A DNA stretch of 32,000 bases from Kineococcus radiotolerans SRS30216 = ATCC BAA-149 (GCF_000017305.1 NC_009664.2:3540001-3572000), one strand, 5' to 3'. Counted from the first letter of the stretch, positions 2,290 through 25,463 are shown. Notes: generated by a model not told the origin, from the letters alone. Numbers and translations: made by a program.

Positions 2290-3240
2290 TCAGCGCGCCG
2301 GGGCCGGTGCGGCCGCCCCGGGCTCGAACGCGGAGAGGTCGATCGCGCCGCGCCCGCGGGACAGCGACGGGAACCGCTGGAGCAGGAACTCCCGGCTGCG
2401 CAGCGCGGCCTCGCGGTGCACGGGGTCGTGGTCGTACAGCTCCACGCTGATCCACCCCCCGTAGCCCGCGTCGAGGACCGCGCCCACGGCGTCGAAGTCC
2501 ACGTCCCCGTCGCCGGGGACGAGGTGGGCGTGCACCCGGTCGGCGATGTCCTCGACCTGCAGGTGCCGGGTGAGGGGCAGGTGGTGTTCCAGCGAACCCA
2601 GCGCGTCGTCCTCGACGACGACGCAGTGCCCGAGGTCCTGGCTCAGCCACAGGTCCGGGCTGCCCGTCCGGGTCAGCAGGGCCGCGACCTGCGCGTTGGT
2701 GGCGCAGTGGAAGTCCGGTTCCGGTTCGACGCCCAGCACCGTGCTGCCGCGGGGGAGCCCGGCGGCGTCCAGGGTTTCGTGCAGCGTGTCCAGCAGGACG
2801 GCGACGGCCTCGTCCAGCCAGGCGTCGGCCCGGGCGGGGGGCACGTCGGCGCGCCGCCGGCCGGTGGAGAACACCACGAGGGGAACTCCGGCGAGGACCC
2901 CGAGGCGGACGCTGCGGCGCAGCAGGTCCAGCCGGCGGGCCCGTTCGGCGGGGTCGGGGTCGACGAGGGCCGGTTCGAAGGCGTTCCCGCTCAGCAGGTG
3001 CGGATCGCCGGTGGCGAGGCTGCAGGCGGTGAGCCCGGTCGCGTCGAGCACCGCGCGCAACCGGTCCGCGTCCGCCGCGGAGAACGCCCACGGGTCGACG
3101 TGCTGGGCGTTGAGGGAGAGTTCGATGCCGTCGTAGCCGCAGTCGGCGAGCGTGCGGACGGCCTCGTCCAGGCTGACCGACCGCAGGCCGTTCGCGTTGT
3201 ACGCCAGTCGCGTCGCCGGCGTCGGGGAGGTCTTGGGCAC
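2290..3240 (-). CDS. Sugar phosphate isomerase/epimerase (xylose isomerase-like TIM barrel family)
   Basis: Sequence features: ...LAYNANGLRSVSLDEAVRTLADCGYDGIELS..., VEPEPDFH..., HLQVEDI...HLVPGDGDVDFDAVGAVLDAGYGGWISVELY. These match the AP endonuclease 2 / IolE-IolI type TIM barrel pattern. I chose the GTG start at 3240 because of the GAGGAG RBS 5 nt upstream; the ORF-track start at 3384 would add an Arg/Pro-rich extension. Confidence 0.8.
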   Translation of the reverse strand: MPKTSPTPATRLAYNANGLRSVSLDEAVRTLADCGYDGIELSLNAQHVDPWAFSAADADRLRAVLDATGLTACSLATGDPHLLSGNAFEPALVDPDPAERARRLDLLRRSVRLGVLAGVPLVVFSTGRRRADVPPARADAWLDEAVAVLLDTLHETLDAAGLPRGSTVLGVEPEPDFHCATNAQVAALLTRTGSPDLWLSQDLGHCVVVEDDALGSLEHHLPLTRHLQVEDIADRVHAHLVPGDGDVDFDAVGAVLDAGYGGWISVELYDHDPVHREAALRSREFLLQRFPSLSRGRGAIDLSAFEPGAAAPAPAR

Positions 3241-3471
3241 GGGTGCTCCTCGTGTTCGCGGTGCGGCGCAGGCAGGGGGACCGACCGCGAGGCGGTTGTT
3301 CCACCGGGCGCCTCCAGCAGGGCACCACGTTTCCGCCTGCCGCGCACGGGGTACGAACCGATCACGGGGAGTGAGAAGCGTCACGGGGGTTCGATGTGCG
3401 GACCCGGGAACCCGGTGGCACGGTGACGGCGTGTTCCTCCTCCTCCCGGGCGCTGCCGCTCGAGGTCACCG

Positions 3472-4464
3472 GTGACCGGGCCCCGAAACTCCGACGTCCC
3501 CGCGAACCCCTCCCCGGGGGGGAACTCCGGCCCCGACGAACCGGTGGTCGCCCCCTCGACGCTGCAGCTCCTGCGCGAACTGGCCGATGTGAAGCGCTTG
3601 CGCGACGCCCGCGGAACCGGCTCGCTGGCCGACCGGGCCTTCACCCGGTCCTGGCGGACCCTCCTGCGGGACTGGTCCCCGGAACGGGTGCGCGACCTCG
3701 CGCTGCGCGAGGTCTCCCACGCCCTGGTGGCGGCTCGCCTCGCCGGGGTCGACGCCGCGGTCCTCGCCACCGCCGGGTTGACCCGCGACGAGCGGCTGGA
3801 CGTCCTGCGCCGCGCCTTCGACGCCGTCACGGCGACCGCCGAGGGGGGTTTCGGCGACCTCGCCGACCTGCGCGCGGCCCTGGACCCCGAACCCCTCGAC
3901 GAGGAGCTCCTCCCGCCCGCCCCGGCCTTCGTGGACGCCCTCGTCCGCCAGCCCCGGGCCGGGGCCACCCACCCGGTGCTGCCGCGGGTGGTCGTCGAAC
4001 CCCCCGAGAGCCACGGGGACCACTGCTTCGTCACCGCCGCGTACTCCGCCCTCGTCGCTCCCCGCTTCGGCGTGGACCGCGGCGAGGCGTTCCTCGTCGC
4101 CCTGGCCCACCACCTGCCCAACGGCGACCTGCCCGACGCCGGGTTCGGCGGGGAGGTGCTGCTGGGGGAGCACTACCTCCCCGTGCTGGCCGCCCTGGAG
4201 GAACGTTCCCTGCGCCAGCTCCCCCTCGGCCTGGCCGCGCACCTGCGGGACCTGCTGCCCCGGCGGGAGACCACGGACACCGCGGTCGGCCGGGTGTTCA
4301 ACACCGCCGACGTGCTGGACCGCGTGCTGCAGGTCCACCACCACGCCCGCGCCGCGGGTTTCACCGCGGCCCAGGCCCTCGACGACCTCGACATCGTCCA
4401 CCCCGGCACCGTCCAGCGGTTCCAGCTCGGCGTGCTCGCCGGTGCCGGCATCCCGGTGCGCTGA
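3472..4464 (+). CDS. Hypothetical protein with a YfbR-like HD-domain pattern (variant metal motif HH instead of HD)
   Basis: 330-aa ORF with GC3-rich codons and a GAGG 6 nt upstream of the GTG. The central region ESHGDHCFVTAAYSALVA...LVALAHHLPNGDLPD aligns by eye to the H...HD...GD pattern of 5'-deoxynucleotidase-type HD phosphohydrolases. Confidence 0.55.
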   Translation: MTGPRNSDVPANPSPGGNSGPDEPVVAPSTLQLLRELADVKRLRDARGTGSLADRAFTRSWRTLLRDWSPERVRDLALREVSHALVAARLAGVDAAVLATAGLTRDERLDVLRRAFDAVTATAEGGFGDLADLRAALDPEPLDEELLPPAPAFVDALVRQPRAGATHPVLPRVVVEPPESHGDHCFVTAAYSALVAPRFGVDRGEAFLVALAHHLPNGDLPDAGFGGEVLLGEHYLPVLAALEERSLRQLPLGLAAHLRDLLPRRETTDTAVGRVFNTADVLDRVLQVHHHARAAGFTAAQALDDLDIVHPGTVQRFQLGVLAGAGIPVR

Positions 4465-4484
4465 AACCCGACCGAGGAGAACCC

Positions 4485-5546
4485 GTGACCACTCCCGACG
4501 ACCAGACCGACCCCCGCACCGGCTGGGTCATCGCCGGCGCGGGCTGGGTCGCCCGCGACCACATGGCCCCCGCCCTGGCCGCCTCCGCCACCAGCCGCGT
4601 CGTCGCGGTCGTCGACCGGGACCTCGCCGCCGCCCGCGCGCTGGCGGCCCGGTTCCCCGGCGCCGTCGCGCACGACGACCCGGCCACCGCGTTCGCCACC
4701 CCCGGCGCGCAGGTGGCCTACGTCGCCACGCCCAACCACGCCCACCGCGAGGTCGCGGTCGCCGCGGCGGAGGCCGGCCTGGCGGTCCTGTGCGAGAAAC
4801 CCCTCGCCGCGGACCTGGACGACGCCGCGGCCCTGGTCGAGGGGTGCGAACGCGCCGGGGTCGTGGCCGCCACGGCCTTCGACCAGCGGTTCCACCCCGC
4901 CCACGAGGTGGTGGCGGAGATGGTGGCCCGCGGTGACCTGGGGACGGTCACCGCCGTCCGCATCGTCTACGCCTGCTGGCTGCCGCCCGGCTGGGCCCCG
5001 CCGGGCAGCACGACCGGCGACAACTGGCGCGTCGACCCCGTCCGGGCCGGCGGCGGCGCCTACGTCGACCTGGCCCCGCACGGGCTGGACCTCGTCGGGA
5101 CGCTGCTCGGCGAGGACGTCGTCACCGCCACCACCCACCTGCAGCACCGCGTGCACGACTACGCCGTCGACGACGGGTCCGTCCTCGTCGGCAGCACGTC
5201 CTCCGGTGTGCTGGTGACGATCTCGAACTCCTTCAACACCGTGGAGACCTTGCCGCGCCGGCGGCTGGAGATCGTCGGGACCGCGGGGCAGCTCGTCGCC
5301 ACCGATACCATGGGGCAGGACGCCGGGGGGCGCGTGGAGTTCCTCGACGCCACCACCGGGGAGTCCCGCGACGTCGAGTTCGACCGCGAGACCTCCCCGT
5401 TCACGGGGGAGCTGCGCGCCCTCGAGGCCGCGGTGACCGGCGGCGGGGACTGGCGGTTCCCGATGTCGCGCGACCTGCACCTGCTGCGCCTGCTGCACGG
5501 CGCGCTCACCGTCCAGGAGACCCGACCCGCGGAGGCACGACGATGA
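4485..5546 (+). CDS. Gfo/Idh/MocA family NAD(P)-dependent oxidoreductase
   Basis: GTG at 4485 preceded by GAGGAG. The N-terminal Rossmann segment is WVIAGAGWVARDHMAPAL. The family motif AVLCEKPLA and the C-terminal alpha/beta domain are present. Confidence 0.85.
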   Translation: MTTPDDQTDPRTGWVIAGAGWVARDHMAPALAASATSRVVAVVDRDLAAARALAARFPGAVAHDDPATAFATPGAQVAYVATPNHAHREVAVAAAEAGLAVLCEKPLAADLDDAAALVEGCERAGVVAATAFDQRFHPAHEVVAEMVARGDLGTVTAVRIVYACWLPPGWAPPGSTTGDNWRVDPVRAGGGAYVDLAPHGLDLVGTLLGEDVVTATTHLQHRVHDYAVDDGSVLVGSTSSGVLVTISNSFNTVETLPRRRLEIVGTAGQLVATDTMGQDAGGRVEFLDATTGESRDVEFDRETSPFTGELRALEAAVTGGGDWRFPMSRDLHLLRLLHGALTVQETRPAEARR

Positions 5547-6478
5547 CCGGTCCCGACGACTCCCACGCCCTGCGCGGGGTCCGCGCCGGGGAACTCGCCC
5601 CGCTGCCCACCCGGGCCCACCGCACGCACCGGGCGTACTCCTGCACGAACTGCGGGCACTGGCAGCGGTGGTTCGCCACCACCCCGCCGCCCTCGTGCCC
5701 GGTGTGCTCCGACGTGCGCAACGAACTGCCCGTCGAGGGGTTCGCGTTCCTGCGCGAGACGGAGGTCGACGCCCTCGTCACGACCTCGTGGCGCGAGGCG
5801 GTCCCGGGGGTGACGGAGTTCTGGTGCGACCCCGTCGTGGGCCTGGGCTCCCACGGCTGGGTGCTGGAGACCGCCGACGGGCTGCTCGGCTTCGAGGCCG
5901 CCCCGTGGTACTCCGCCGACGCGCTGGCCGAGCTGCGCCGGCGCGGCGGGTTGCGCGTGCTCGCCTCCAGCCACGTCCACGGCTTCGGCGGCCTGTGGCA
6001 GTTGCAGGACGAGCTCGACCCGCCCGTCGTGTCGGTCGGCGTCCACGACCTCACCTGGACCAAGGCGTTCCGCGTCACCTGGCCCGCCGACGACGAGACC
6101 GAGCTCGCCCCGGGCATCACCCTGCACCGCACCGGGGGCCACTTCCCCGGGCACAGCGTCCTGCACGACGCCGGCCGCGGCCTGCTCTTCTGCGGGGACT
6201 CCCTCAAGATCGACCTCGACGAGCACGGGAACCCCGCCGCGCTCAGCGCCCACAAGGCGTTCCACGCCCAGATCCCGCTCTCGCGCGCGGAACTGCGCAG
6301 CGTGCGCGAGATCCTCGGCGCGCTGGGGTTCGACACCGTCTTCAGCCCGTTCGAGTTCGCCCGCGGCGTCACCACCCGCCACGTCGTCGCCCTGGTCGAC
6401 CACATGCTCACCCACCCCCCGTCGGCGGCCCCGGTGCCCTTCGACCTCCTCGACGAGAACGTGAGGGTCTTCGCGTGA
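5543..6478 (+). CDS. Zinc-ribbon (CxxC...CxxC) protein with a degenerate metallo-beta-lactamase fold
   Basis: The ATG overlaps the upstream stop (ATGA), with a GGAGG RBS. The N-terminus has CTNCGH...CPVCSD. MBL-like elements are SSHVHGFGG (in place of HxHxDH), TGGHFPGHSV and FCGDSL. Confidence 0.7.
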   Translation: MTGPDDSHALRGVRAGELAPLPTRAHRTHRAYSCTNCGHWQRWFATTPPPSCPVCSDVRNELPVEGFAFLRETEVDALVTTSWREAVPGVTEFWCDPVVGLGSHGWVLETADGLLGFEAAPWYSADALAELRRRGGLRVLASSHVHGFGGLWQLQDELDPPVVSVGVHDLTWTKAFRVTWPADDETELAPGITLHRTGGHFPGHSVLHDAGRGLLFCGDSLKIDLDEHGNPAALSAHKAFHAQIPLSRAELRSVREILGALGFDTVFSPFEFARGVTTRHVVALVDHMLTHPPSAAPVPFDLLDENVRVFA

Positions 6479-8046
6479 ACCCACCCGCCCTGCGGTCCCT
6501 GACCGTCGACCACCCCGTGCGGGAGGACGGCGACCACCGCGCCACCGAGCGCTTCCGCGACGTCCTCGGCGAGCGCGACCGGTTCCAGTTCCCCACCTAC
6601 CGCCTCGACACCGTGGGCGTCCCGTCGTGGTGGACGATCGCGGCGACGGGCGCCGCGGGGGCGGCGGCCATCGGCCACGGCTACGGCGCCACCGACGCCG
6701 ACGCGCGCCGCTCCAGCTGGGGCGAGTCCGCGGAACTGGGGCTGCTGCGGCGCCGGGTCTCCACCCTGGAGCACCGGCGCGGGACCCGCGCCGAGCTGGT
6801 CGCGGAGTTCGGCGCCGACGCCGTCCTCGACCCGCCGTCGGTGTGCCTGGACGCGGGATCCCCCTACCACCCCGGTAGCCCGCTGAACTGGCTGCCGCTG
6901 CAGCGCTGGGGGACCGGGGAACGGGTCTGGGCCCCCGCCGACGTCGTCCTGCGCGACGCCGACGAACTGCCCGAGGGGTTCGTCGACGACCTCCCGCGCC
7001 TGGTGACCCGGCACGGCAACGGGCTCGGCGCCGGCGACAGCCTGGAACGGGCCGTGGCCCACGGCATCGGGGAACTCCTCCAGCGCGACGGCAACGGCAC
7101 CCGGTTCCGCGCCCTGGACACCGGGATCGTCCTCGACCTCGGGACCGACGACGAGCTCGTCGCCGATCCCGTCACCCGCGACGCGCTGGCCCGGTTGCGG
7201 GCGCAGGGCGTGCGCGTCGTCCCCAAGCTCGCCAACGACTGGTGGGGGATCGTCAACGTCACCGTGGTCGGGGCCGACGACGACCCGCTGCAGCCGGTCA
7301 TGGTCACCGCGGCCGGCGAGGCTGCCCACCCCGACCGCGAGGTCGCCCTGCGCAAGGCCGTCCTGGAGTTCGCCGCCGCGCGCTCGCGCAAGGCCTTCAC
7401 CCACGGCGACCTCGACGCCGTCCGCCGCATCAGCCCGCCCGGGTACGTGGAGCGCTACGCCGCCGACCCCTCGACCCAGGAGCAGCGCGCGCTGCGCGGG
7501 ATGCTGGGGTGGCTGGAGCGCGACGCGGCCCAGCTGCGGGAACTGCTGGAACCGGTGGTGCTCGCCGAGCGCAGCCGCCGCCGGTTCGACACCCTGCCCA
7601 CCTGGAACGCCCCCGAGGGCGCCGACGAGCAGCGGGCCCTGGCCGCGCACCTGGTCGGCCTGCTGCGCGAGCGCGGGTTCGACGTCCTGGTGCTGGACTG
7701 CTCCGCCGACGACGTCGCCGTCGCCCGCGTCGTCGTCCCCGGCCTGGAGGTCGAGATCGTCAGCTACGGGCGCATCGGTGAACGGGGCCTGGCCGACCTG
7801 CTGGAACGCGGCGACGGGCGCACCGGCCTGCACGGCATCGCCGGCCTCGGCGTCCCCGGGCGCGACGGCGTCCCCGCGGGGGCCGAGCCCGTCCACCTCA
7901 CCGACGCCGCGCGGGAACGGTTCGGCGCCCCCGCCTGGCTGGACCGGGCCGCGCTGGACCGGGTCCTGGGCGACCTGTACCCGCTGTACCGCGAACCGGC
8001 GCTGCACGCGGCCGCGGTGGCCCGCGCGGAGGGGTGGACGGCGTGA
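6475..8046 (+). CDS. YcaO-like family protein (ATP-dependent amide-activating enzyme family)
   Basis: The GTG overlaps the upstream stop (GTGA). Motifs seen: GHGYGATDADARRSSWGESAE, GNGLGAGDSLERAVAHGIGELLQRDG, AAGEAAHPDREVALRKAVLEFAAAR and VARVVVPGLEVE, all typical of the YcaO domain. Confidence 0.85.
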   Translation: MNPPALRSLTVDHPVREDGDHRATERFRDVLGERDRFQFPTYRLDTVGVPSWWTIAATGAAGAAAIGHGYGATDADARRSSWGESAELGLLRRRVSTLEHRRGTRAELVAEFGADAVLDPPSVCLDAGSPYHPGSPLNWLPLQRWGTGERVWAPADVVLRDADELPEGFVDDLPRLVTRHGNGLGAGDSLERAVAHGIGELLQRDGNGTRFRALDTGIVLDLGTDDELVADPVTRDALARLRAQGVRVVPKLANDWWGIVNVTVVGADDDPLQPVMVTAAGEAAHPDREVALRKAVLEFAAARSRKAFTHGDLDAVRRISPPGYVERYAADPSTQEQRALRGMLGWLERDAAQLRELLEPVVLAERSRRRFDTLPTWNAPEGADEQRALAAHLVGLLRERGFDVLVLDCSADDVAVARVVVPGLEVEIVSYGRIGERGLADLLERGDGRTGLHGIAGLGVPGRDGVPAGAEPVHLTDAARERFGAPAWLDRAALDRVLGDLYPLYREPALHAAAVARAEGWTA

Positions 8047-9350
8047 GGATCTGCTTCGTCAGCCGTCGCTACTGGCCCGCGGTGTCGGGCATGAGCGTCT
8101 ACGCGGAGAAGCTGCTCGAGGGGCTCGTGGCCCGCGGCCACGACGTCGTGCTGGTCTCGCAGTTCCGCGGCGACCCCACCGGCAGCGCCGTCTACGGCGG
8201 CGGGCCGCCGCCGGCGGACCGGGTCCCGGCGGGGGTGCGCGCGGTGGGCCTGGAGGCGCTGGGGGAGCAGCGCGTCGCCGACGGCTCACCCGCCGACTTC
8301 GACGCCGACATCGCCGCGATGCGCGCCACCGTCGAGCGCCTGCACGCCGAGGAACCCTTCGACCTCCTGCACGCCCAGTACGCCTGGCCCACCGGGATGG
8401 CGGTGCTGGAGGCCTCCGCCGCGCTGGGGCTGCCCTCGGTGGTCAGCGTCCAGGGCGGCGACGGGCACTGGGTCGGGCTGTGCTGCCCGGCGCACTCCCT
8501 GGGCATCCGGACCGTCCTGGACCGCGCGGGGGCGGTGCTCATCGGCTCGCGGACCTTCGCCGACGAGGTCGTCGAGCACCACGGCACCGACCCCGCCCGC
8601 TTCGACCTCGTGGGCGGGGCCACCGACACCGGCGCGTTCCGCCCCGCCGACGACGCCGCCGCGGGGTCGCTGCCGGGCGCGGGCCCGGTGACGCTGCTGT
8701 TCCACGGCCGGGTGGACCGCCGCAAGGGGGTCCTGGACCTCCTCCACGCTCTGGCCACCCTGCGCGCGGAGGAGCGCGACGTGCGGCTGCTGGTCTCCGG
8801 GATCGGGCCCGACGTCACCGCCGTCGCCGACCTCGTCGCGGAGCTGGGGCTGGGCGGGGCCGTCGAGCAGCGCGGCTACGTCCCCTACCCCGACGCCCCG
8901 GCCGTCTACCGCGACGGGCACGTGTTCGTCTCGCCCACCCAGTCCGAGGGCTTCTCCAACACCATCCTCGAGGCGATGGCCGCGGGCCTGCCCGTGGTGA
9001 CGACCCGCACCGTCGGGGTCGTCGACTGCGTGCGCGACGGCGAGAACGGCCTGCTGCACGAGGTGGGCGACGTCGCGGGCCTCGTCGCGGCGCTGCGCCG
9101 GCTGCTCGACGAGCCGGCGCTGGGCCCGGAGCTGGCCCGGCGGGCGCTCACCGAGGTGCGCGACGTCTGGTCCTGGCCGGCGCTCACGGCGCGCGTCGAG
9201 GCGGTCTACGAGCGGGTGGCCGGGAGCGCCCCGGACACCTCGTGGACCGGGCTCGAACCGGCGCGGCGCCCGACCAGCGCGGGGCGGGGGATCGAACCCG
9301 CCACCGCCGACGCCGACTGCCGGTTCCTCCGCACCCCCCACCTGCTGTGA
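8043..9350 (+). CDS. Glycosyltransferase family 4 (GT-B fold, retaining)
   Basis: The N-terminus VRICFVSRRYWPAVSGMSVYAEKL is typical of GT4. The E-x7-E motif SEGFSNTILEAMAAGLPVV is present. The GTG at 8043 forms a GTGA overlap with the YcaO stop and has GGAGGGG upstream; an alternative GTG lies at 8034. Confidence 0.85.
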   Translation: MRICFVSRRYWPAVSGMSVYAEKLLEGLVARGHDVVLVSQFRGDPTGSAVYGGGPPPADRVPAGVRAVGLEALGEQRVADGSPADFDADIAAMRATVERLHAEEPFDLLHAQYAWPTGMAVLEASAALGLPSVVSVQGGDGHWVGLCCPAHSLGIRTVLDRAGAVLIGSRTFADEVVEHHGTDPARFDLVGGATDTGAFRPADDAAAGSLPGAGPVTLLFHGRVDRRKGVLDLLHALATLRAEERDVRLLVSGIGPDVTAVADLVAELGLGGAVEQRGYVPYPDAPAVYRDGHVFVSPTQSEGFSNTILEAMAAGLPVVTTRTVGVVDCVRDGENGLLHEVGDVAGLVAALRRLLDEPALGPELARRALTEVRDVWSWPALTARVEAVYERVAGSAPDTSWTGLEPARRPTSAGRGIEPATADADCRFLRTPHLL

Positions 9351-10108
9351 GCCCCGCCGAGACCGCCGGGCGCGCGGTGCGGGTCGTGGCGGTGTCCCCG
9401 CACCTGGACGACGCCGCGTTCTCCGCCGGGGGGCTGCTGGCGGGGCTGGCCGCGGCGGGGGCGGAGGTCCACGTCGTGACGGTGTTCACCGCCACCGTGC
9501 CCGGCCCCACGGGCTTCGCCCTGGCCTGCCAGACCGACAAGGGGCTGCCCCCCGAGGTGGACTACATGGCGCTGCGCCGCGCCGAGGACGCCGCCGCCAC
9601 CGCGGCGCTGGGGGTGCGGGGCCGGCACCTGCCCCTGGCCGAGGCCCCGCACCGCGGGTACGGCAGCCCCGCGGCGCTCTTCGGCCCCGTCGCGCCCGGC
9701 GACGAGGACGGCCCCGACGTCGTGCGCGCCGCCCTGGCCGAGGTGCTGGACGGGTTCCCCGGCCCGGTGGACCTGCTCCTGGGGCCGCAGGCCCTCGGCG
9801 ACCACGTCGACCACCGCCACGTCCGCGCCGCGGTGGACGCCCTCACCCACGACCGCGGCCTGCCGCTGGCGCGCTGGGCCGACACCCCCTACGTGCTGCG
9901 TCCGGGCGCCGACGCCCCCGCCGGGTCCCCCCGGTACCCGACGGGGGAGGAGCTCGACGCCAAGGTCGAGGCCTGCGCCGCCTACGCGACGCAGCTGGGC
10001 TTCCAGTTCGACGGGCCGGCCGCGATGACCCGCGCCCTGCGGGCGCTGCCGGAGACCTTCGACCCGCCGCTGCCGGTGCGGGCGGCGGGCCCGCACGCCG
10101 GGGACTGA
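9347..10108 (+). CDS. PIG-L/LmbE family N-acetylglucosaminyl deacetylase
   Basis: GTGA overlap with the GT4 stop. Motifs VVAVSPHLDDAAFSAGG and GDHVDHRHV match the PIG-L zinc-binding signature. Confidence 0.85.
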   Translation: MSPAETAGRAVRVVAVSPHLDDAAFSAGGLLAGLAAAGAEVHVVTVFTATVPGPTGFALACQTDKGLPPEVDYMALRRAEDAAATAALGVRGRHLPLAEAPHRGYGSPAALFGPVAPGDEDGPDVVRAALAEVLDGFPGPVDLLLGPQALGDHVDHRHVRAAVDALTHDRGLPLARWADTPYVLRPGADAPAGSPRYPTGEELDAKVEACAAYATQLGFQFDGPAAMTRALRALPETFDPPLPVRAAGPHAGD

Positions 10109-10116
10109 CCCCGCTC

Positions 10117-10146
10117 GATCGTCCCGCGCCGCGGCGCGGGACGATC
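10117..10146. terminator. Perfect 30-nt palindrome (13-bp stem, CGCG loop) after the PIG-L gene; candidate terminator or operator
   Basis: gatcgtcccgcgc-cgcg-gcgcgggacgatc, read directly from the sequence. It starts 9 nt after the stop at 10108 and ends 53 nt before the next start codon. Confidence 0.5.
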
Positions 10147-10198
10147 CCCCCGCACGGTCGCCGGGCGGCGGCGCCGGCGATCGACAGGAGGCCGGCCC

Positions 10199-11674
10199 GT
10201 GGACGGACCCACCGAGGCGTTGCTGCTGCACCGGGTCCGGCGGGCGGGACGGGTCTGCGACGTCCTGCTCGCCGGGGGCCGCGTCGTCGCCGTCGGCGAC
10301 GACCTGCGCGCGGCCGCGACCGGGCTGGACCCGCTGGGGGCGGTGGAGGTCGTCGACGCCGGTGGGGCGGTCCTGCTGCCCGGGCTGGTCGACTCCCACG
10401 TCCACCTCACGCAGTGGGCCGCGGCCCGCCGCCGCGTCGACGTCCTGGCCGCGACGTCGGCCGCCGAGGCCGCGGACCTGCTGGCCCGGCACGCCGGGCC
10501 GGGCACCGACCTCGTGCTGGGGCACGGGTACCGGGACGCGCTGTGGAGCGGGCCCGCCCACCGGGACGTGCTGGACGTGCGGTTCCCCGACCGGCCCGTC
10601 GTCGTGGTGAGCGCGGACCTGCACGCCGTCTGGGTGAACTCCCCCGCCGCCGCCCGCTTCGGCGTCGCCGACCCCACCGGGGTGCTGCGGGAGGGACCCG
10701 CGATGGAACTCATCGCCGCCGCCGGCGACGTGGGGGAGGCCACGCTGGACCGCTGGGTCGCGGAGGCGACGACGGTCGCCGCCGCCCGCGGGGTCACCGG
10801 CGTGGTGGACCTGGAGTTCGCCCCGATCGGCACCTGGAGCCACCGGGCCCGCCCCGACGTGCGGATCGCCGCCGGCGTCTGGCCGCAGTGGCTGGAGGAG
10901 GCGGTCGCGGCGGGGCTGCGCACCGGCGACGCCGTCCCCGGCGCCCCGGACCGGGTGCGGGTGGGCCCGGTGAAGTTCGTCGTCGACGGGTCGCTGGGCA
11001 CCCGGACGGCGTTCTGCCACGACGAGTACCCCTCCGGCGGCCACGGCGTGCTGCGGATCCCCCTCGCGGAGCTGGAACCCGGACTGCGCCGCGCCACCTC
11101 CCACGGGCTGACCGCCGCCGTCCACGCCATCGGCGACGACGCCGTCCGCGTCGCCCTCGACGGCTTCGAGGCCACCGGCGCGCGCGGCAGCGTGGAGCAC
11201 GCCCAGCAGGTCCACCCCGAGGACCTGCCCCGCTTCGCCCGCCTCGGCGTCCTCGCCAGCGTCCAGCCGCGCCACGCCGTCGACGACCGCGACGCCGTGG
11301 CGCGGCACTGGCCCCGCGGGGCCGAGCGGGCCTACCCCTACGCCGCGCTGCGGGCGGCCGGCGCGGAGCTGCGGCTGGGCTCCGACGCCCCCGTCGCGCC
11401 GCTGGACCCGTGGGACGCCCTGGCCAGCGCGGTGCACCGCAGCCTCGACGAGCGCGAACCCTGGCGACCCGACCAGCACCTGCCCCTCGACGTCGCGCTC
11501 GCGGCGGGCTGCGGGGGCCGGCGCGGCGTGCACGTGGGCGACGTCGCCGACCTGACCCTCGTCGCGGTCGACCCCGCGCGCGCGTTCGCGGACGGGGGAG
11601 CGGACGCCCTGCGCCGCACCGAGGTCCTCGCCACCGTCCTCGGCGGGGAGTTCACCCACCGGGCCGGGGTCTGA
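10199..11674 (+). CDS. Amidohydrolase family protein (YtcJ-like, Amidohydro_3 type metal-dependent hydrolase)
   Basis: CAGGAGG RBS upstream of the GTG. Motifs LLPGLVDSHVHL, VHAIGDDAVRVALDGFE and GSVEHAQ are present. Confidence 0.85.
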   Translation: MDGPTEALLLHRVRRAGRVCDVLLAGGRVVAVGDDLRAAATGLDPLGAVEVVDAGGAVLLPGLVDSHVHLTQWAAARRRVDVLAATSAAEAADLLARHAGPGTDLVLGHGYRDALWSGPAHRDVLDVRFPDRPVVVVSADLHAVWVNSPAAARFGVADPTGVLREGPAMELIAAAGDVGEATLDRWVAEATTVAAARGVTGVVDLEFAPIGTWSHRARPDVRIAAGVWPQWLEEAVAAGLRTGDAVPGAPDRVRVGPVKFVVDGSLGTRTAFCHDEYPSGGHGVLRIPLAELEPGLRRATSHGLTAAVHAIGDDAVRVALDGFEATGARGSVEHAQQVHPEDLPRFARLGVLASVQPRHAVDDRDAVARHWPRGAERAYPYAALRAAGAELRLGSDAPVAPLDPWDALASAVHRSLDEREPWRPDQHLPLDVALAAGCGGRRGVHVGDVADLTLVAVDPARAFADGGADALRRTEVLATVLGGEFTHRAGV

Positions 11675-12564
11675 CCTCCGACAGCGGCCGCCCGCTGCGC
11701 TCCTCGAGCAGCGCGGCGGCCAGCAGCTCCCCGTCGACGGGCCCGAACCGGGCCAGCGCCTCCCGGTGCAGCCGCGTCACCTCCCGGGCCAGGCCGAAGG
11801 GGGTGCCGTGCTCGGCGGCCAGCCCGTCGAGGACCTCCAGCTCCTCCACGCAGCGGTCGAGGCCGAAGTCGCGCAGGTGGTCCCCGCGCAGCAGGGAGTC
11901 GACGTGGCGCTGCAGGAACGCGCTGTCGCCGGCGGACCCGGCCCAACGCGTCCCGGACGGCGCCCACGTCCAGCCCGGCGTCGCGGGCCAGCAGCAGGGA
12001 CTCGGTCACGGCCACCGACTGCCCGAACCACAGCAGGTTCGCCAGCAGCTTCACCAGCTGACCCGCCCCGGGGGAGCCACCGGCGCGCCGGATCGACCCG
12101 CCCCCGCGGCTGAGCTCCACCAGCAGCGGCAGGACCCGCTCCACGTCCGCGTCGGCGCCGCCCACGAAGAGGTCCAGCGATCCCGCCGCGGCCCCGGCCG
12201 GGCCCCCGCCCATCGCCGCGCCGACGGCACCGACCCCGGCGCGGTGCAGGCGCGCGGCGAGGTCGTCGGTCGTGCGGGGGTCCCCGCTGGTGAGGTCCAG
12301 CCACACCGACCCCGGGCGCAGGGCGGCCAGCACCTCCGCGGCGTCGCGGACCTCCGCGGCGCCGGGGAGGACGGTGACGAGGACGTCGGCGCCGAGCGCG
12401 ACCTCCCGCGCCCCACCGACGTCGGCCCCCGCGGCGCGCGCGGCCCCCGCCCGCTCCGGGTCCGGGTCGGAGGCGGTGACGCGGTGACCGGCGGCGAGGA
12501 ACCGCCGCAGCACCGGCAGGCCCATCCGGCCCACGCCCAGGACCCCGACCACCCCGTCGACCAC
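11652..12564 (-). pseudogene. NAD(P)-dependent oxidoreductase (3-hydroxyisobutyrate dehydrogenase-like), disrupted by a +1 frameshift near 11937-11943
   Basis: The N-terminal part (GTG 12564, GGAGGGG RBS) reads VVGVLGVGRMGLPVLRRFLAAGHRV...AVRDALG and then becomes Arg-rich nonsense. The homologous C-terminus (GSAGDSAFLQRHVDSLLRGDHLRDFGLDRCVEELEVLDGLAAEHGTPFGL...) continues in the adjacent frame to the stop at 11652. Confidence 0.7.
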
Positions 12565-12655
12565 CGTGACGTCCCCTCCGGCGGTGCCCGCCGCGGTCAC
12601 CCCGCGCCCAGGGTGGCAGGGCCGGCGCGTCGGCGCCGCGTGCCACAGTGGGGCC

Positions 12656-13687
12656 GTGCCCGCCAAGACCTCCGGCAAGAGCCCCGCCAAGAAGGCCGCC
12701 GCGGCGCTCACGACCTCCCCCCACGACCTCGCCCCCGCCCCGGTGGTGCTCCTCGCCGGCTCCGAGGAGCACCTCGCCGACCGCGCCCTCAGCGCCCTCA
12801 CCACCCGCATGCGCGAGCTCGACCCCACCTTCGAGCGCACCGACGTCTCCGCCGCCGGGTACCAGAAGGGGCAGCTGGCGACGTGGACGTCCCCCTCGCT
12901 GTTCGACGAGCGGTCCCTCGTCCTCGTCGACGGGGTCGACGTCGCCAGCGACGCCTTCGTCGAGGACGTCCTGGACTACCTCACCGCCCCCGCCGAGACG
13001 GTCGTGCTCGTCCTGCGCCACCGCGGCGGCAACAAGGCCAAGAAGGTCCTCGACGTCGCCCGGGGCGTCCCGGGGGTCGCGGAGGTCTCCTGCCAGCCGC
13101 TGAAGCGGGACCAGGAGAAGGTCGACCTCGTCCTCGCCGACGTCCGCCGCGCCCGCCGCCGCATCGACCTCGACGCCGCCCGGGCCCTCGTCGCGGCCCT
13201 GGGCAGCGACCTGGGGGAGCTGGTGGCCGCGGTGGACCAGCTGCTCACCGACACCGACGGCACCATCACCGAGGACGCCGTGCACCGCTACCACGGGGGC
13301 CGGCGGGAGGCCACGGGCTTCGAGGTGGCCGACGCGGCCGTGGAGGGCCGGACCGGGCAGGCCCTGGTGCTCGTGCGGCACGCGGCGGCGACGGGCGTGC
13401 CGCCGGTGCTGGTGGTCGCGGCGCTCGCGGCCCGGCTGCGCCAGCTCGCGCGGGTCGCCGCGGCGGGGCGAGGACGCTCCGCGGACGTGGCGCGCGACCT
13501 GGGCATGGCCCCCTGGCTGATCGACCGGGCCCGCCGGGACCTGCTGCACCTCTCCCCGGAGGGGCTGGGGGAGGCGATCCTCGCCGTCGCCGCCGCCGAC
13601 CACGCCGTCAAGGGCGGGGGAGCCGACCCCCAGCACGCGCTGGAGAGGGCGGTGCGCATCGTCGGGGAGGCCCGCAGCACCCCCTGA
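12656..13687 (+). CDS. holA: DNA polymerase III subunit delta
   Basis: The sequence has the length and layout of delta subunits: VVLLAGSEEHLADRAL...SLFDERSLVLVDG...LGSDLGELVAAVDQLL...GFEVADAAVEGRTGQAL. The start is set at the in-frame GTG 12656; the ORF-track start at 12566 would overlap the divergent gene. Confidence 0.8.
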   Translation: MPAKTSGKSPAKKAAAALTTSPHDLAPAPVVLLAGSEEHLADRALSALTTRMRELDPTFERTDVSAAGYQKGQLATWTSPSLFDERSLVLVDGVDVASDAFVEDVLDYLTAPAETVVLVLRHRGGNKAKKVLDVARGVPGVAEVSCQPLKRDQEKVDLVLADVRRARRRIDLDAARALVAALGSDLGELVAAVDQLLTDTDGTITEDAVHRYHGGRREATGFEVADAAVEGRTGQALVLVRHAAATGVPPVLVVAALAARLRQLARVAAAGRGRSADVARDLGMAPWLIDRARRDLLHLSPEGLGEAILAVAAADHAVKGGGADPQHALERAVRIVGEARSTP

Positions 13688-13709
13688 CGCGCCTCCCGGC
13701 CCCCGGACG

Positions 13710-13749
13710 CACGGAGGGCCGGCCCCCGAGCGGGGACCGGCCCTCCGTG
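13710..13749. terminator. Bidirectional terminator hairpin between convergent holA and rpsT
   Basis: cacggagggccgg ... ccggccctccgtg forms a perfect 13-bp stem, with an inner cccc(g)/(c)gggg extension. Confidence 0.6.
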
Positions 13750-13762
13750 AGGGATCCGGGGA

Positions 13763-14023
13763 TCAGACCTTGGCCGCGGCCTTGGCGATGGCCGACTTGC
13801 GGTTGGCGGCCTGGTTCTTGTGGATGACGCCCTTGCTCACGGCCTTGTCGAGCTTCTTGCTCGCCAGGGCCAGAGCGGCCTGCGCCTTCTCGGCGTCGCC
13901 GGCGGCGAGCGCCTCACGGAAACCGCGCACGACGGTGCGCAGCTCCGACTTGACGGCCTTGTTGCGCAGGCGCGCCTTCTCGTTGGTGAGGATGCGCTTC
14001 TTCTGCGACTTGATGTTCGCCAC
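13763..14023 (-). CDS. rpsT: 30S ribosomal protein S20
   Basis: [30 protein letters not shown]...[23 protein letters not shown] is an unmistakable S20 sequence of 86 aa. Confidence 0.95.
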
Positions 14024-14260
14024 GTGTTTCCGTCTTCCTGTCGATCGCTGATCGGTGTCAGAGGGCGGTCGCTCCACCGGGGACTTCCGGCGTGGGGACA
14101 CCGGGAGGGACGGCGGGAGACCGTGACCTCCGCACTGAGGCGAAGGCACCGTCAAGACTAGCAGCGACCGGGCCCCTCCCTCGACGCCGCGACGACGGGC
14201 CCGGCGTGCGACGCGGGCCGCGGCGTGGTCTCGTGCTCCCGGGAACCACGAGGAGGAACC

Positions 14261-15088
14261 ATGGGTCTGCTGAGCCGGTTGTTCGGACGCGGGGAGTCCC
14301 GCACGTCGCCACCGCCGTACGCCCGCAGCGCGCCGCCGCCCGCCGCCGCGCCGCGCAGCGCCGCGGGGGGCGGGGACGCCGACGCCGCGGCCATCGCCCG
14401 CTACCGCTACATGCTGCGGACCGCGCCGCCGGACCAGGTGGAGCAGGCCCACGCCGAGGCCTTCGAGCGGCTGACGCCGCAGCAGCGCCGGCAGGTCCTG
14501 GAGCAGCTGTCCGCGGTCGTGCCGGCCTCGGAGCAGCACGGCGACGACCCGCGCTCGCTGGCGCGCGCCGCCACCCGCGCCGAGGTCCGCCAGCCCGGCA
14601 CCCTGGTGCAGATCTTCAACGGTCCCGGCGGCGGGTACGGCGGCGGTGGCTACGGCGGCGGGTTCGGCGGGGGCGGCTACGGCCGGGGCGGCGGGTTCGG
14701 CGGCGGGTTCGGCGGCGGCGGGATGGGGATGGGTCTGGGCGGCAGCCTGCTGGCCGGTGTCGCCGGCGCCTTCGTCGGCACCGCCATCGCCGACGCGCTG
14801 ATCCCCGACGACTTCGGCAACGAGCACTGGGGCGACGACCAGGCCTACGAGGCCGGCGAGCAGCAGGGCTACGACGAGGGCTACCAGGACGGCGAGCAGC
14901 AGGACGGCGACCAGGGCGGGGACCAGGGGGTGGACACCACCGACGTCGGGTACGACGGGGGCGGCTACGACGAGGGCCTCGGCCAGGGCTTCGACCAGGG
15001 CGGCTACGAGCCCAGCTTCGACGACGGCGGCTTCGGCGGGGGCGGCTTCGACGACGGCGGCTTCGACGGCGGCGACGTGGACGTCTGA
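14261..15088 (+). CDS. Hypothetical protein with a glycine-rich (GGYGGG/GGFGGG) core and an acidic Asp/Glu/Gln/Gly-rich tail
   Basis: ATG at 14261 with an AGGAGG RBS. The N-terminal helical segment is MGLLSRLFG...[12 protein letters not shown], followed by Gly repeats, one hydrophobic stretch ([18 protein letters not shown]) and an acidic low-complexity tail. Possibly DUF2076-like, but I cannot verify this. Confidence 0.65.
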
Positions 15089-15137
15089 CCGGCCCCCGCG
15101 GAGGCCTCGGCGGGCGTCCTCGCGGTCCGCGCCCGCC

Positions 15138-16121: not shown

Positions 16122-16226
16122 CGGGCACCTCCAGCGGGTTCGGTCGCCGTGACCGTGGGGGTGGGACGCCGCCGCGCGCCGGGCGGTTCCGCGCGGGCGG
16201 ACGGCCCGGGGACCGGACGTGCGACG

Positions 16227-25421: not shown

Positions 25422-25463
25422 GCGCCCAGGTTCCCACCGCCGGGCCCGCGTACCGTGCCCGGG

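Follow-up and report, generated by a model that had tools for sequence, protein, structure and literature searches.

The evidence presented below suggests that the YcaO protein encoded by Kineococcus radiotolerans at positions 6475..8046 (+ strand) of the window, a term used here for the whole 32-kb stretch of DNA that was analyzed, belongs to a distinct and widespread clade of predicted functional YcaO enzymes that serve a conserved operon building a glucosaminyl-cyclitol (hereafter, the cassette), and not to the peptide-modifying enzymes of RiPP systems; we assign this reading a probability of roughly 55%. That the window ORF is a genuine member of the YcaO superfamily is confirmed, since it passes the thresholds of both Pfam PF02624 (E = 3.6e-48, 165 bits versus a cut-off of 25.7, residues 69-425) and NCBIfam TIGR00702 (80.5 versus a cut-off of 75.65). 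Its 523-aa product is identical over the full length (100% identity) to the annotated K. radiotolerans YcaO-like protein, and its translation contains both family motifs quoted in an earlier reading made without database searches (the sequence-only reading). Third-codon-position GC places the gene on the + strand in the frame of the ORF 5668-8046, with a GTG start at 6475 that forms a GTGA overlap with the stop of the upstream gene. More specialized models scored under their cut-offs, namely the SagD-family model TIGR03604 (61.2 versus 219.25 bits), the McrA-type equivalog TIGR03266 (79.1 versus 365 bits) and the S12/uL16-type equivalog NF040716 (26.3 versus 700 bits).

Residue roles in the YcaO protein were based on alignments and on a published analysis of McbD (PMC6395948). 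Across 20 diverse homologues, E84, E87, E200, R204, D205, E282 and E298 are invariant. The sequence-only reading had named loss of the ATP-binding residues as a sign of an inactive enzyme, and the ATP/Mg glutamates E84, E87, E200, E282 and E298 are all in place, but one canonical Glu is not: throughout the clade (82/82 loci, 205/205 proteins), Gln203 stands in for the second Glu of ExxER(D), at a position that is Glu in each of the five solved YcaOs used for alignment (EcYcaO, MJ1094, LynD, TruD and MkYcaO). The invariant ExxQRDGN and a C-terminal LYPLYREP constitute the signatures of the clade. The protein has a pI of 5.27 (family range 4.9-5.8), ends in ...LYPLYREPALHAAAVARAEGWTA and, as judged from the translation and the homologue alignment, lacks the C-terminal Pro-rich PxPxP motif of azoline-forming cyclodehydratases.

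Pfam scans of the 29 GC3-supported ORFs in the 32-kb window returned no ThiF/E1, TfuA, nitroreductase-type azoline dehydrogenase or lanthipeptide enzyme (LanB/LanC/LanM), in agreement with the sequence-only reading. An E1-like/Ocin-ThiF/RRE partner, fused or adjacent, is likewise absent from the window and not conserved in 80 related loci; TfuA is absent from the window and not conserved beside the cassette in related loci, and neither an azoline dehydrogenase nor a precursor peptide emerged from Pfam, small-ORF or conservation scans. Two luciferase-like monooxygenases (19990-21003 and 24909-26504) lie 12-17 kb off, amid housekeeping genes, and show no conservation with the cassette. The small-ORF scan considered start-to-stop ORFs of 12-120 aa beginning in, or at most 30 nt from, the cassette gaps (3241-3471, 4465-4484 and 10109-10198), which had already been described as devoid of a precursor ORF; these gaps fit the gene model and yielded out-of-frame Arg/Pro/Gly-rich ORFs only. 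A hidden precursor peptide was rejected, as the gap ORFs are compositional junk that is not conserved in Kineococcus or beside the cassette elsewhere, with no conserved small ORF across 11 other Kineococcus loci. The gaps were likewise rejected as sites of a riboswitch or another RNA element, no Rfam family being detected anywhere in the window. A partner or precursor that had been overlooked or that lay beyond the window, an eventuality for which the sequence-only reading had allowed, did not emerge as anything conserved beside the cassette in related loci. In a scan of a Micromonospora reference locus against the other 79 loci, with a threshold of at least 10 loci, a single epimerase gene, shared by 10 loci, was the only conserved feature outside the block running from myo-inositol-phosphate synthase (MIPS) to PIG-L; the conserved surroundings thus include no peptide, E1, TfuA, dehydrogenase, transporter or regulator.

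In the window, the YcaO gene is part of a translationally coupled operon encoding an HD-domain protein, a Gfo/Idh/MocA oxidoreductase, a Zn-ribbon/metallo-beta-lactamase (MBL) protein, YcaO, a GT4 glycosyltransferase and a PIG-L protein, together with a divergent TIM-barrel gene; the genes from Gfo to PIG-L are joined by ATGA/GTGA overlaps, and the HD-Gfo gap is 20 nt. The divergent gene (2290..3240, - strand, starting at GTG 3240 behind a GAGGAG ribosome-binding site) encodes a xylose-isomerase-like TIM barrel of the inosose/keto-sugar isomerase or epimerase type (AP_endonuc_2, 5.4e-31), with weak, below-threshold NCBIfam matches (IolO, IolE, hydroxypyruvate isomerase); in other lineages it lies directly 3' of YcaO on the same strand. 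It is separated from the operon by the divergent intergenic (promoter) region 3241..3471, which holds no credible small ORF and no Rfam family. The HD-domain protein (3472..4464, +; Pfam HD_3, 9.5e-5) is a candidate sugar/cyclitol-phosphate phosphatase. Its AF2 model (pLDDT 86.8) combines an N-terminal helical domain of ~150 aa with a C-terminal half of the YfbR/HDDC2-type phosphohydrolase fold (Foldseek matches 2cqz, 1xx7 and HDDC2, target-normalised TM 0.65-0.72), and in a profile alignment its HD dyad reads HH, with H213-H214 at the HD position; on the fold match to YfbR/HDDC2 phosphohydrolases, an MIOX/PhnZ-type oxygenase was rejected. The Gfo/Idh/MocA protein (4485..5546, +; GFO_IDH_MocA, 1.7e-23, plus C-terminal domains) is an NAD(P)-dependent oxidoreductase of the inositol/sugar dehydrogenase type, whose top NCBIfam match is IolG at 102 bits, under its cut-off.

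Downstream of YcaO, a GT4 retaining glycosyltransferase of MshA/BshA-like type is encoded at 8034..9350 (+; Glyco_trans_1_4, 1.3e-35, and Glyco_trans_4_4), possibly starting instead at GTG 8043, which overlaps the YcaO stop. Its nearest solved relatives are MshA (7qsg, 2.5e-18; 3c4q) and BshA, and it scores 91.8 versus 462.5 bits against the MshA model TIGR03449. The last gene (9347..10108, +) encodes a PIG-L/LmbE-family de-N-acetylase with PHLDD and HVDH metal motifs (Pfam PIG-L PF02585, 5.2e-14, 53.3 bits versus a cut-off of 28.2), whose nearest relatives of solved structure all deacetylate GlcNAc (6iiy, Dbv21 and Orf2*), and which falls under the MshB equivalog cut-off (19.9 versus 224 bits). 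No cassette protein reaches an NCBIfam equivalog cut-off, those of MshA, MshB and Ino1 included. A perfect 13-bp G+C-rich hairpin (10117..10146, +; RNAfold dG -28.6 kcal/mol) probably marks the end of the operon, and the gene 3' of it carries a separate AGGAGG site and does not accompany the cassette in related loci. This Amidohydro_3 gene (10199-11674) was rejected as a bottromycin-style hydrolase partner because it is not conserved, with no homologue adjoining the cassette in 80 loci, Kineococcus included, and because it is set off from the operon by the strong hairpin and by a ribosome-binding site of its own. MIPS or another cyclitol synthase is absent from the window, the cysteine ligase MshC/BshC and MshD occur neither in the window cassette nor in the conserved block of related loci, and no PLP aminotransferase or resistance/export gene is present in the cassette or conserved adjacent to it.

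Among one-genome-per-species GTDB contigs, at least 569 cassette loci were confirmed. They span Actinomycetota, Alphaproteobacteria and Planctomycetota, with gene order kept across all three, and relatives of 30-35% identity retain the cassette. Gene counts were compiled for 80 fetched loci plus the window (81): YcaO is found in 81, Gfo and GT4 in 76 each, PIG-L in 73, and HD and TIM barrel in 72 each, followed by the methyltransferase (65), MBL (59) and MIPS (58). The methyltransferase and MIPS are the usual extra members, a MIPS-like gene opening the cassette. In one of the relatives of 30-35% identity (L085), a DHQ-synthase-like (DHQS-like) sugar-phosphate cyclase replaces MIPS, which points to the cyclitol as the constant ingredient; L085 is a single metagenomic contig and visibly frameshifted. 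Another (L047, one MAG contig) consists only of MIPS-MBL-YcaO-epimerase, without GT4 or PIG-L. Even in atypical loci, YcaO is still found amid carbohydrate genes. The hosts are soil, rock and lichen bacteria, and the producers of the predicted compound would be Actinomycetota that tolerate desiccation and radiation, Acetobacteraceae associated with lichens, and Planctomycetota. The sequence-only reading holds as regards the missing canonical partners, but the notion of a RiPP-type YcaO with an overlooked peptide, which it had kept in view, is at odds with a cyclitol/aminosugar operon kept in three phyla; since the operon is such a conserved cassette, a RODEO-style peptide hunt is unlikely to yield the substrate.

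The upstream Zn-ribbon/MBL protein (5543..6478, +; CxxC...CxxC followed by an MBL fold, Lactamase_B 1.1e-6), whose gene shares ATGA and GTGA overlaps with its two neighbours, had been put forward as the best candidate partner for YcaO, and it is a good one. Its gene lies directly upstream of YcaO in 59/81 loci, and natural MBL::YcaO fusions occur in several independent clusters, one 829-830-aa form being found on at least 7 contigs. The protein has a degenerate HxHxDH motif (SHVHGFG), and C34, C37, C52, C55, H144, H146, H200, H204, H208, D209, D219, H237 and H241 are invariant. A fold search for a specific MBL subfamily was uninformative on function, as the AF2 model (pLDDT 84) gave generic MBL matches only (query-normalised TM about 0.5). 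The MBL gene is, however, missing from 17/76 loci with an upstream Gfo gene, all 17 of them alphaproteobacterial, and is therefore dispensable or encoded elsewhere in those genomes, and a PIG-L::YcaO fusion in an Acuticoccus sp. (4-Mb contig, cassette otherwise complete) means that MBL is not the sole candidate. In the fusions the partner domain, MBL or PIG-L, is N-terminal to YcaO. One further fusion, Gfo::YcaO (P0358), was discounted because a frameshift could have produced it: it occurs on a single contig, and in loci without MBL the Gfo and YcaO genes adjoin each other.

Several known systems resemble parts of this arrangement. Archaeal YcaOs, which thioamidate McrA, are stand-alone domains without an E1-like fusion, as is the window YcaO (MJ1094, 6pe3/6peu; M. 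kandleri, 6ci7). MJ1094 is the top profile match among solved structures (7.8e-20), its ATP-site helices align with those of the window YcaO, and both types lack the C-terminal PxPxP. The window protein differs from the archaeal type in reading ExxQRD and not ExxERD, in an extra C-terminal region of ~95 aa ending in LYPLYREP, and in residing within a carbohydrate operon with no TfuA and no McrA. In LynD/TruD/PatD the domain logic is alike, an N-terminal E1-like/RRE domain there corresponding to MBL or PIG-L in divergent members of the clade, but the partner fold here is MBL plus Zn ribbon, with no E1/RRE, leader peptide or azoline dehydrogenase. The bottromycin enzymes PurCD/BotCD form an amidine with an amine nucleophile in the absence of E1/TfuA and together with the amidohydrolase PurAH/BotAH; cooperation with a metallo-hydrolase is a parallel, whereas bottromycin, as a RiPP, derives from a precursor peptide, and its hydrolase is a TIM-barrel amidohydrolase. 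The E. coli YcaO (4q84) thioamidates ribosomal protein uL16 (PMC13063428), which set the precedent of a non-RiPP substrate. It also has no neighbouring precursor or classical partner, but its similarity to the window YcaO is barely detectable (E = 1.3e-3), its pI is 4.4 (about 5.3 in the window clade), and it lies outside any conserved biosynthetic operon.

With mycothiol and bacillithiol biosynthesis the cassette shares MIPS (in most loci), an MshA/BshA-related GT4, a PIG-L deacetylase and a putative phosphatase; it differs in lacking MshC/BshC and MshD, in adding Gfo, the TIM barrel, the methyltransferase, MBL and YcaO, and in occurring also in Alphaproteobacteria and Planctomycetota, neither of which is known as a source of mycothiol. 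The aminoglycoside pseudodisaccharide is made from a cyclitol by GlcNAc transfer (GT4, BtrM/NeoD type) and then deacetylation (PIG-L, BtrD type), and the cassette has the corresponding cyclitol synthase (MIPS in most loci, or the DHQS-like enzyme in L085), GT4 and PIG-L, as well as tailoring enzymes in the Gfo-type dehydrogenase and the methyltransferase. Unlike aminoglycoside clusters, it has no aminotransferase, resistance/export genes or regulator, and its spread among stress-tolerant bacteria of soil, rock and lichen looks like that of a physiological trait and not of an antibiotic.

On top of the gene content, its conservation and the fusion proteins, which are shown, a pathway can be proposed from what is known of these families. 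Cyclitol phosphate would come from the in-cassette MIPS in most lineages (in K. radiotolerans, presumably from a housekeeping enzyme), GlcNAc would be attached to it by the MshA-like GT4, the HD phosphohydrolase would remove the phosphate and PIG-L the acetyl group, Gfo/Idh/MocA and the TIM barrel would oxidize and epimerize a ring hydroxyl, and the methyltransferase would decorate the product in most lineages. In the weakest step of the proposal, YcaO together with Zn-ribbon/MBL would use ATP to O-phosphorylate the tetrahedral adduct at a carbonyl on or near the sugar C2 nitrogen, and elimination of phosphate would leave a C=N bond. Either the GlcNAc acetamide itself would be activated, giving an amidine, thioamide or oxazoline, or the amine freed by PIG-L would act as the nucleophile, as in amidine-forming YcaOs; the second version is favoured because PIG-L::YcaO fusions exist, and the step would then fill the slot of MshC/BshC ligation in low-molecular-weight thiol pathways. 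Deacetylation by PIG-L enzymes followed by re-functionalization of the amine is established for MshB and MshC, and for Orf2* and an acyltransferase. The MBL domain may take the N-terminal, E1-like role of LynD-type enzymes in binding or presenting the substrate, or may supply or hydrolyze a reaction partner. We give about even odds to the claim that this would be the first YcaO, working with Zn-ribbon/MBL, to act on a non-peptidic small molecule through ATP-driven carbonyl activation, forming C=N on a glucosaminyl-cyclitol, and that the product is a previously unknown, widespread intracellular metabolite, for example a cofactor, a thiol-like redox buffer or a protective solute. All characterized YcaOs of which we know act on a peptide or protein backbone, so a small-molecule substrate has no precedent, and a full-text literature search on YcaO with inositol, GlcNAc, cyclitol or MBL proteins found no linking paper. 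Against the glucosaminyl-cyclitol reading it may be noted that the sole annotated amide of the cassette, the GlcNAc acetamide, is the expected PIG-L target, that an obvious acyl, amide or sulfur donor is missing from the annotated cassette, that the Mg-site Glu is Gln clade-wide, that MBL is missing from 17/76 loci and that L047 has neither GT4 nor PIG-L.

The composition of the cassette also bears on a rather unlikely alternative, in which YcaO would activate a non-amide cyclitol carbonyl, the inosose ketone produced by Gfo or by a DHQS-like cyclase, and would phosphorylate the hemiaminal or hydrate to drive C-N bond formation in place of a PLP aminotransferase. To our knowledge, such an aminotransferase is present in every known aminocyclitol pathway, and it is missing here; the most persistent set is cyclitol synthase, Gfo and YcaO; the L047 mini-cassette, without GT4 and PIG-L, would fit a cyclitol carbonyl and not a sugar nitrogen as the substrate; and the L085 cyclase belongs to a family whose members make ketocyclitols directly. 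These two loci are, however, single metagenomic contigs, one of them frameshifted, no YcaO is known to take a ketone as its substrate, an imine can form without ATP, and the sugar nitrogen is favoured both by the PIG-L::YcaO fusion and by the near-universal occurrence of GT4 with PIG-L.

It appears unlikely that the target of YcaO is a protein or peptide whose gene lies elsewhere in the genome, with the sugar genes unrelated or glycosylating the same target. Known YcaO substrates are all peptide or protein backbones, profile comparison places the McrA-type MJ1094 closest among solved structures (7.8e-20), the nearest solved relatives of the PIG-L protein deacetylate GlcNAc on glycopeptide aglycones, and EcYcaO works without an adjacent substrate gene (PMC13063428). 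Yet unrelated neighbours could hardly explain the operon linkage, the gene order kept in three phyla and the MBL and PIG-L fusions; the MIPS or DHQS-like cyclase of the cassette suggests a cyclitol and not a peptide; the McrA-type and S12/uL16-type models are missed by wide margins (79 versus 365 and 26 versus 700 bits); and the family pI of 4.9-5.8 differs from the value of 4.4 tied to the basic uL16 substrate (PMC13063428).

A catabolic cassette, degrading an inositol glycoside or mycothiol-like compound with PIG-L as an amidase, Gfo and the TIM barrel as a pair degrading 3-keto-glycosides or inositol and YcaO in an accessory or regulatory role, is very unlikely. The combination of Gfo/Idh/MocA and a xylose-isomerase-like TIM barrel is classically catabolic, as in IolG/IolI/IolE and in 3-keto-glycoside breakdown, and is echoed by the weak NCBIfam matches, and PIG-L relatives include the amidase Mca; against this, biosynthetic MIPS opens most cassettes, a nucleotide-sugar-type GT4 and a methyltransferase are present, and conservation with the block extends to no transporter, binding protein or regulator. 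It is highly improbable that YcaO is a catalytically dead scaffold: although the Mg-binding Glu of five solved YcaOs is replaced by Gln and an E-to-A change at the Mg-coordinating Glu of McbD nearly abolishes activity (PMC6395948), the invariance of Gln203 in 82/82 loci and 205/205 proteins implies selection and not decay, the remaining acidic and basic site residues are invariant, and in McbD itself a Gln that matters for function belongs to the coordination sphere of ATP (PMC6395948). The carbonyl oxygen of a Gln side chain remains able to bind Mg.

Activation of amide backbones with ATP is typified by the YcaO enzymes. A 2021 survey reported no evidence of non-RiPP YcaO function in Actinobacteria (PMC8442711). 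If the glucosaminyl-cyclitol reading is true, YcaO chemistry would extend to carbohydrates, MBL-fold proteins would form a new class of partners alongside E1-like and TfuA proteins, and genome mining that labels every YcaO as a RiPP cluster would be mislabelling these loci. It would also mean that stress-tolerant soil, rock-surface and lichen bacteria, the radiation-resistant K. radiotolerans included, have an unknown metabolite in common.

Gene calls in the window, which has a G+C content of ~77%, were based on third-codon-position GC. The YcaO gene lies on the + strand, with a GTG start at 6475 that overlaps the stop codon of the upstream gene (GTGA) and a stop at 8046. Its 523-aa product, which is 100% identical to the annotated Kineococcus radiotolerans YcaO-like protein, matches the Pfam YcaO family (PF02624; E=3.6e-48, 165 bits, cut-off 25.7) and scores above the cut-off of the generic NCBIfam YcaO-type kinase domain model (80.5 vs 75.65 bits); both family motifs claimed in the sequence-only reading were found in the translation. 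That reading had described a YcaO devoid of canonical partners and of a precursor peptide, and the observation is confirmed. Among 29 supported ORFs from the full 32 kb, Pfam analysis revealed no ThiF/E1-like protein, TfuA, nitroreductase-type dehydrogenase or lanthipeptide enzyme, and the three non-coding gaps in which no precursor had been seen agree with the gene model, the ORFs within them all being out-of-frame and Arg/Pro/Gly-rich. None of the gap ORFs of the window is kept in 11 other Kineococcus species, and no Rfam families were found in the window.

The YcaO gene is the fourth in a densely packed operon on the + strand that comprises genes for an HD-domain protein (3472-4464), a Gfo/Idh/MocA oxidoreductase (4485-5546), the Zn-ribbon and metallo-beta-lactamase-fold (MBL) protein (5543-6478), YcaO (6475-8046), a GT4 glycosyltransferase (8034-9350) and a PIG-L de-N-acetylase (9347-10108). 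The HD and Gfo genes are separated by 20 nt, and the genes from Gfo through PIG-L are translationally coupled via ATGA/GTGA overlaps. A xylose-isomerase-like TIM-barrel gene (2290-3240, - strand) is divergent and has its own GAGGAG site, and a perfect 13-bp hairpin (10117-10146, dG -28.6 kcal/mol) lies 3' of PIG-L. The Amidohydro_3 metallo-hydrolase gene directly after the cassette (10199-11674, + strand), considered as a bottromycin-style YcaO helper, is set off from the operon by the hairpin and its own AGGAGG ribosome-binding site, has a homologue in 0/80 related loci and adjoins the cassette in this window only. The luciferase-like (flavin/F420-type) monooxygenases at 19990-21003 (- strand) and 24909-26504 (+ strand) are not azoline dehydrogenases; their genes sit amid housekeeping genes 12-17 kb from YcaO and are unlinked to the cassette in other genomes.

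From ~12.5 kb on, the window consists of core chromosome (holA, rpsT, lepA, a hemW-like radical SAM gene, hrcA, dnaJ). The G+C content falls to 69-72% at 16000-18000, across lepA, vs ~77% elsewhere in the window, a dip that probably reflects what is normal for a highly conserved translation gene and not an insertion. Just before the core region, a 3-hydroxyisobutyrate/6-phosphogluconate dehydrogenase-like gene (11652-12549, - strand; NAD_binding_2 2.9e-24) presents an apparent frameshift near 11930-12005. Its N-terminal part is readable in one frame as far as ...AVRDALG, and its C-terminal part (GSAGDSAFLQRHVDSLL...) lies in a different frame, in ORF 11652-12005; the frameshift either marks a pseudogene or results from a sequencing error. 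At the other end, a CYTH-CHAD protein (373-2169, - strand), with triphosphate-tunnel and polyphosphate-granule-associated domains joined by a Pro/Glu/Thr-rich (TEP)n linker (repeat ~1426-1470), is not conserved with the cassette.

One genome per GTDB species was covered in a pattern scan, which confirmed at least 569 cassette loci. Gene content was examined in 80 fetched loci plus the window, by tblastn with the window proteins complemented with Pfam on one Micromonospora locus. The sample spans Actinomycetota (11 Kineococcus, 7 Micromonospora, 6 Streptomyces, 4 Actinomycetospora and several others), Alphaproteobacteria (more than 40 Acetobacteraceae, Rhodospirillales and others, many from lichen metagenomes, as well as Skermanella and Microvirga) and two Planctomycetota (Tundrisphaera, Isosphaeraceae). 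A single gene order was found: MIPS-like synthase, HD, SAM methyltransferase, Gfo/Idh/MocA, Zn-ribbon/MBL, YcaO, TIM barrel, GT4 and PIG-L. YcaO was present in 81/81 loci, Gfo and GT4 in 76 each, PIG-L in 73, HD and TIM barrel in 72 each, methyltransferase in 65, MBL in 59 and MIPS in 58, several of the absences corresponding to contig ends. Complete Acetobacteraceae chromosomes whose cassette lacks MBL include OZ244581.1 and OZ241208.1. The K. radiotolerans cassette has neither MIPS nor methyltransferase, and its TIM-barrel gene is inverted; the methyltransferase is kept in three other Kineococcus species. When all ORFs of the Micromonospora locus were used as queries, an epimerase gene (10 loci) was the only conserved gene beyond the MIPS-to-PIG-L block at a threshold of at least 10 loci, and no peptide, partner, transporter, regulator or resistance gene was conserved beside the cassette. 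Two Kineococcus-like cassette proteins, P0404 and P0125 (81% and 73% identical), are filed under 'Paenibacillus sp. TRM 82003' and 'Kocuria sp. CPCC 205316'; NCBI flags the second of these as UNVERIFIED_CONTAM, and both source assemblies are probably contaminated.

When 1.84 billion cluster representatives were searched exhaustively with phmmer, 704 matched at E<=1e-3 and 104 at E<=1e-30, and the cassette is retained in relatives at 30-35% identity. One of these loci, L084, holds the complete nine-gene cassette, followed on the same strand (11376-16402) by genes for a 770-aa GT4-like protein, a GH130 phosphorylase, a type III polyketide synthase and a methyltransferase, which may further elaborate the product, for instance through extra glycosylation or a phenolic lipid. 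In L085, a noisy long-read assembly with several fragmented cassette genes, a DHQ-synthase-like sugar-phosphate cyclase (4030-5103) occupies the first cassette position in place of MIPS, and this non-orthologous replacement points to the cyclitol as the constant ingredient. A marine TARA contig, L083, presents the order Gfo, GT4, PIG-L, MBL, unknown gene, YcaO and, immediately 3' of YcaO, a PlsC-type acyltransferase (6624-7337), which could re-acylate the deacetylated amine and provide an amide substrate in that lineage. In three atypical loci YcaO still lies beside carbohydrate genes: an RmlA-like nucleotidyltransferase and an ABC-2 exporter in one, a GT2 glycosyltransferase in another and, in L047 from a Pseudonocardiaceae MAG (4547-10200), an unknown 286-aa protein, MIPS, MBL, YcaO and an SDR epimerase. 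The L047 flanks are unrelated (TIR-STAND-WD40 NTPase, AsnB, RsgA, EPSP synthase). Either the missing genes lie at another site or MBL and YcaO together work on the cyclitol alone.

The proposal that the overlapping Zn-ribbon/MBL protein is a YcaO partner gained support from natural Zn-ribbon/MBL::YcaO fusions (P0251, P0268, P0278, P0283, P0322, P0327). The window MBL protein shares 40-42% identity with the corresponding part of P0268 and P0278, and the P0268-type fusion (829-830 aa) recurs on 7 contigs. PIG-L is fused to YcaO in P0249, on a 4-Mb Acuticoccus contig where the remaining cassette is intact and the separate MBL protein is 49% identical to that of the window. The one Gfo::YcaO fusion may be an assembly artefact. 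This is a genuine YcaO fixed within a cyclitol/aminosugar operon, without a peptide, to which the MBL and PIG-L proteins are sometimes fused.

No cassette protein reached NCBIfam equivalog cut-offs. The best solved relatives of GT4 are MshA (D-inositol-3-phosphate glycosyltransferase, 2.5e-18) and BshA, and those of PIG-L, which retains the PHLDD and HVDH metal motifs, are the GlcNAc deacetylases 6iiy, Dbv21 and Orf2*. The HD protein model is confident (pLDDT 86.8), and its C-terminal half superposes with YfbR/HDDC2-type phosphohydrolases; the metal ligands H184 and D280 are kept, and the dyad (residues 213-214, window 4108-4113) is His-His in 22/22 aligned family members in place of His-Asp, which is unusual for a phosphohydrolase. 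The MBL protein is conserved to a higher degree than YcaO, its counterparts in other genera being 59-83% identical to the window protein. It has two CxxC knuckles whose four Cys are invariant, as is a set of His/Asp residues; its model adopts the MBL fold and matched no specific subfamily, and the degenerate HxHxDH motif (SHVHGxG) suggests a single metal site.

From these protein families we infer a scaffold route in which MIPS, or the DHQS-like cyclase, would generate a cyclitol phosphate, the MshA-like GT4 enzyme would add GlcNAc, HD would remove the phosphate and PIG-L the acetyl group. In the manner of the IolG/IolI pair, Gfo and the TIM barrel would then act on a ring position by oxidation and epimerisation, and the methyltransferase would decorate the product. 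The first four steps of this route match the first half of mycothiol/bacillithiol synthesis and also that of aminoglycoside pseudodisaccharide synthesis, but the cassette has neither the ligase and aminotransferase of those pathways nor their orthologues. To our knowledge, the freed amine is always re-functionalised in the mycothiol, bacillithiol and aminoglycoside pseudodisaccharide pathways. Since no ligase or acyltransferase is conserved in the cassette, re-functionalisation of the amine is proposed for the YcaO-MBL pair. Using ATP, YcaO-MBL would O-phosphorylate a carbonyl adduct in which the C2 nitrogen takes part, and elimination would give a C=N product of the amidine, imidate or thioamide type. 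YcaO enzymes have as their mechanistic hallmark the passage of 18O from a labelled carbonyl into phosphate. The PIG-L product may be channelled to YcaO, and the MBL domain may serve as a partner that presents the substrate or handles a reagent.

A ketocyclitol as the substrate of YcaO is unlikely, a distant protein as its substrate appears less probable still, and a catabolic cassette is a highly doubtful reading. The clade profile matched the McrA-thioamidating M. jannaschii YcaO best among solved structures (7.8e-20), followed by LynD, TruD and M. kandleri YcaO, with E. coli YcaO (EcYcaO) marginal, and the window YcaO scored far under the cut-off of every functional equivalog model (McrA type, 79 bits against 365; SagD type, 61 against 219; S12/uL16 type, 26 against 700). 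The pI of the family here is 4.9-5.8; that of EcYcaO, 4.4, has been connected with its basic ribosomal substrate (PMC13063428). A proteome-wide AlphaFold3 screen was part of that work on EcYcaO.

Conservation of the ATP/Mg glutamates relative to solved YcaOs, singled out as a check in the sequence-only reading, held with one exception. The first ExxE helix (E84, E87) is intact, as are E200, R204, D205, E282 and E298, but Gln replaces the second Glu of the canonical ExxERD, the clade motif being ELLQRDGN in 82/82 loci and 205/205 proteins vs SEVFER in EcYcaO, LEIIERD in the M. jannaschii MJ1094, MELVERD in LynD and TruD, and LEVVERD in M. kandleri YcaO. The clade proteins also carry ~95 additional C-terminal residues; where cyclodehydratases have a Pro-rich tail, these finish with a nearly invariant LYPLYREP. 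Because conservation is strict across phyla, it favours an active enzyme whose metal or substrate environment is altered over a decayed one, which makes a dead YcaO the least credible explanation.

Stand-alone YcaOs of Actinobacteria were surveyed in 2021, and evidence for non-RiPP roles was stated to be absent in that phylum (PMC8442711). Our full-text literature searches, whose coverage is not exhaustive, found no report tying a YcaO to cyclitol, GlcNAc or MBL proteins. The protein described here belongs to the YcaO superfamily, the defining features tested for azoline-forming, TfuA/thioamide and EcYcaO-type systems are absent, and it probably acts on something other than a peptide.
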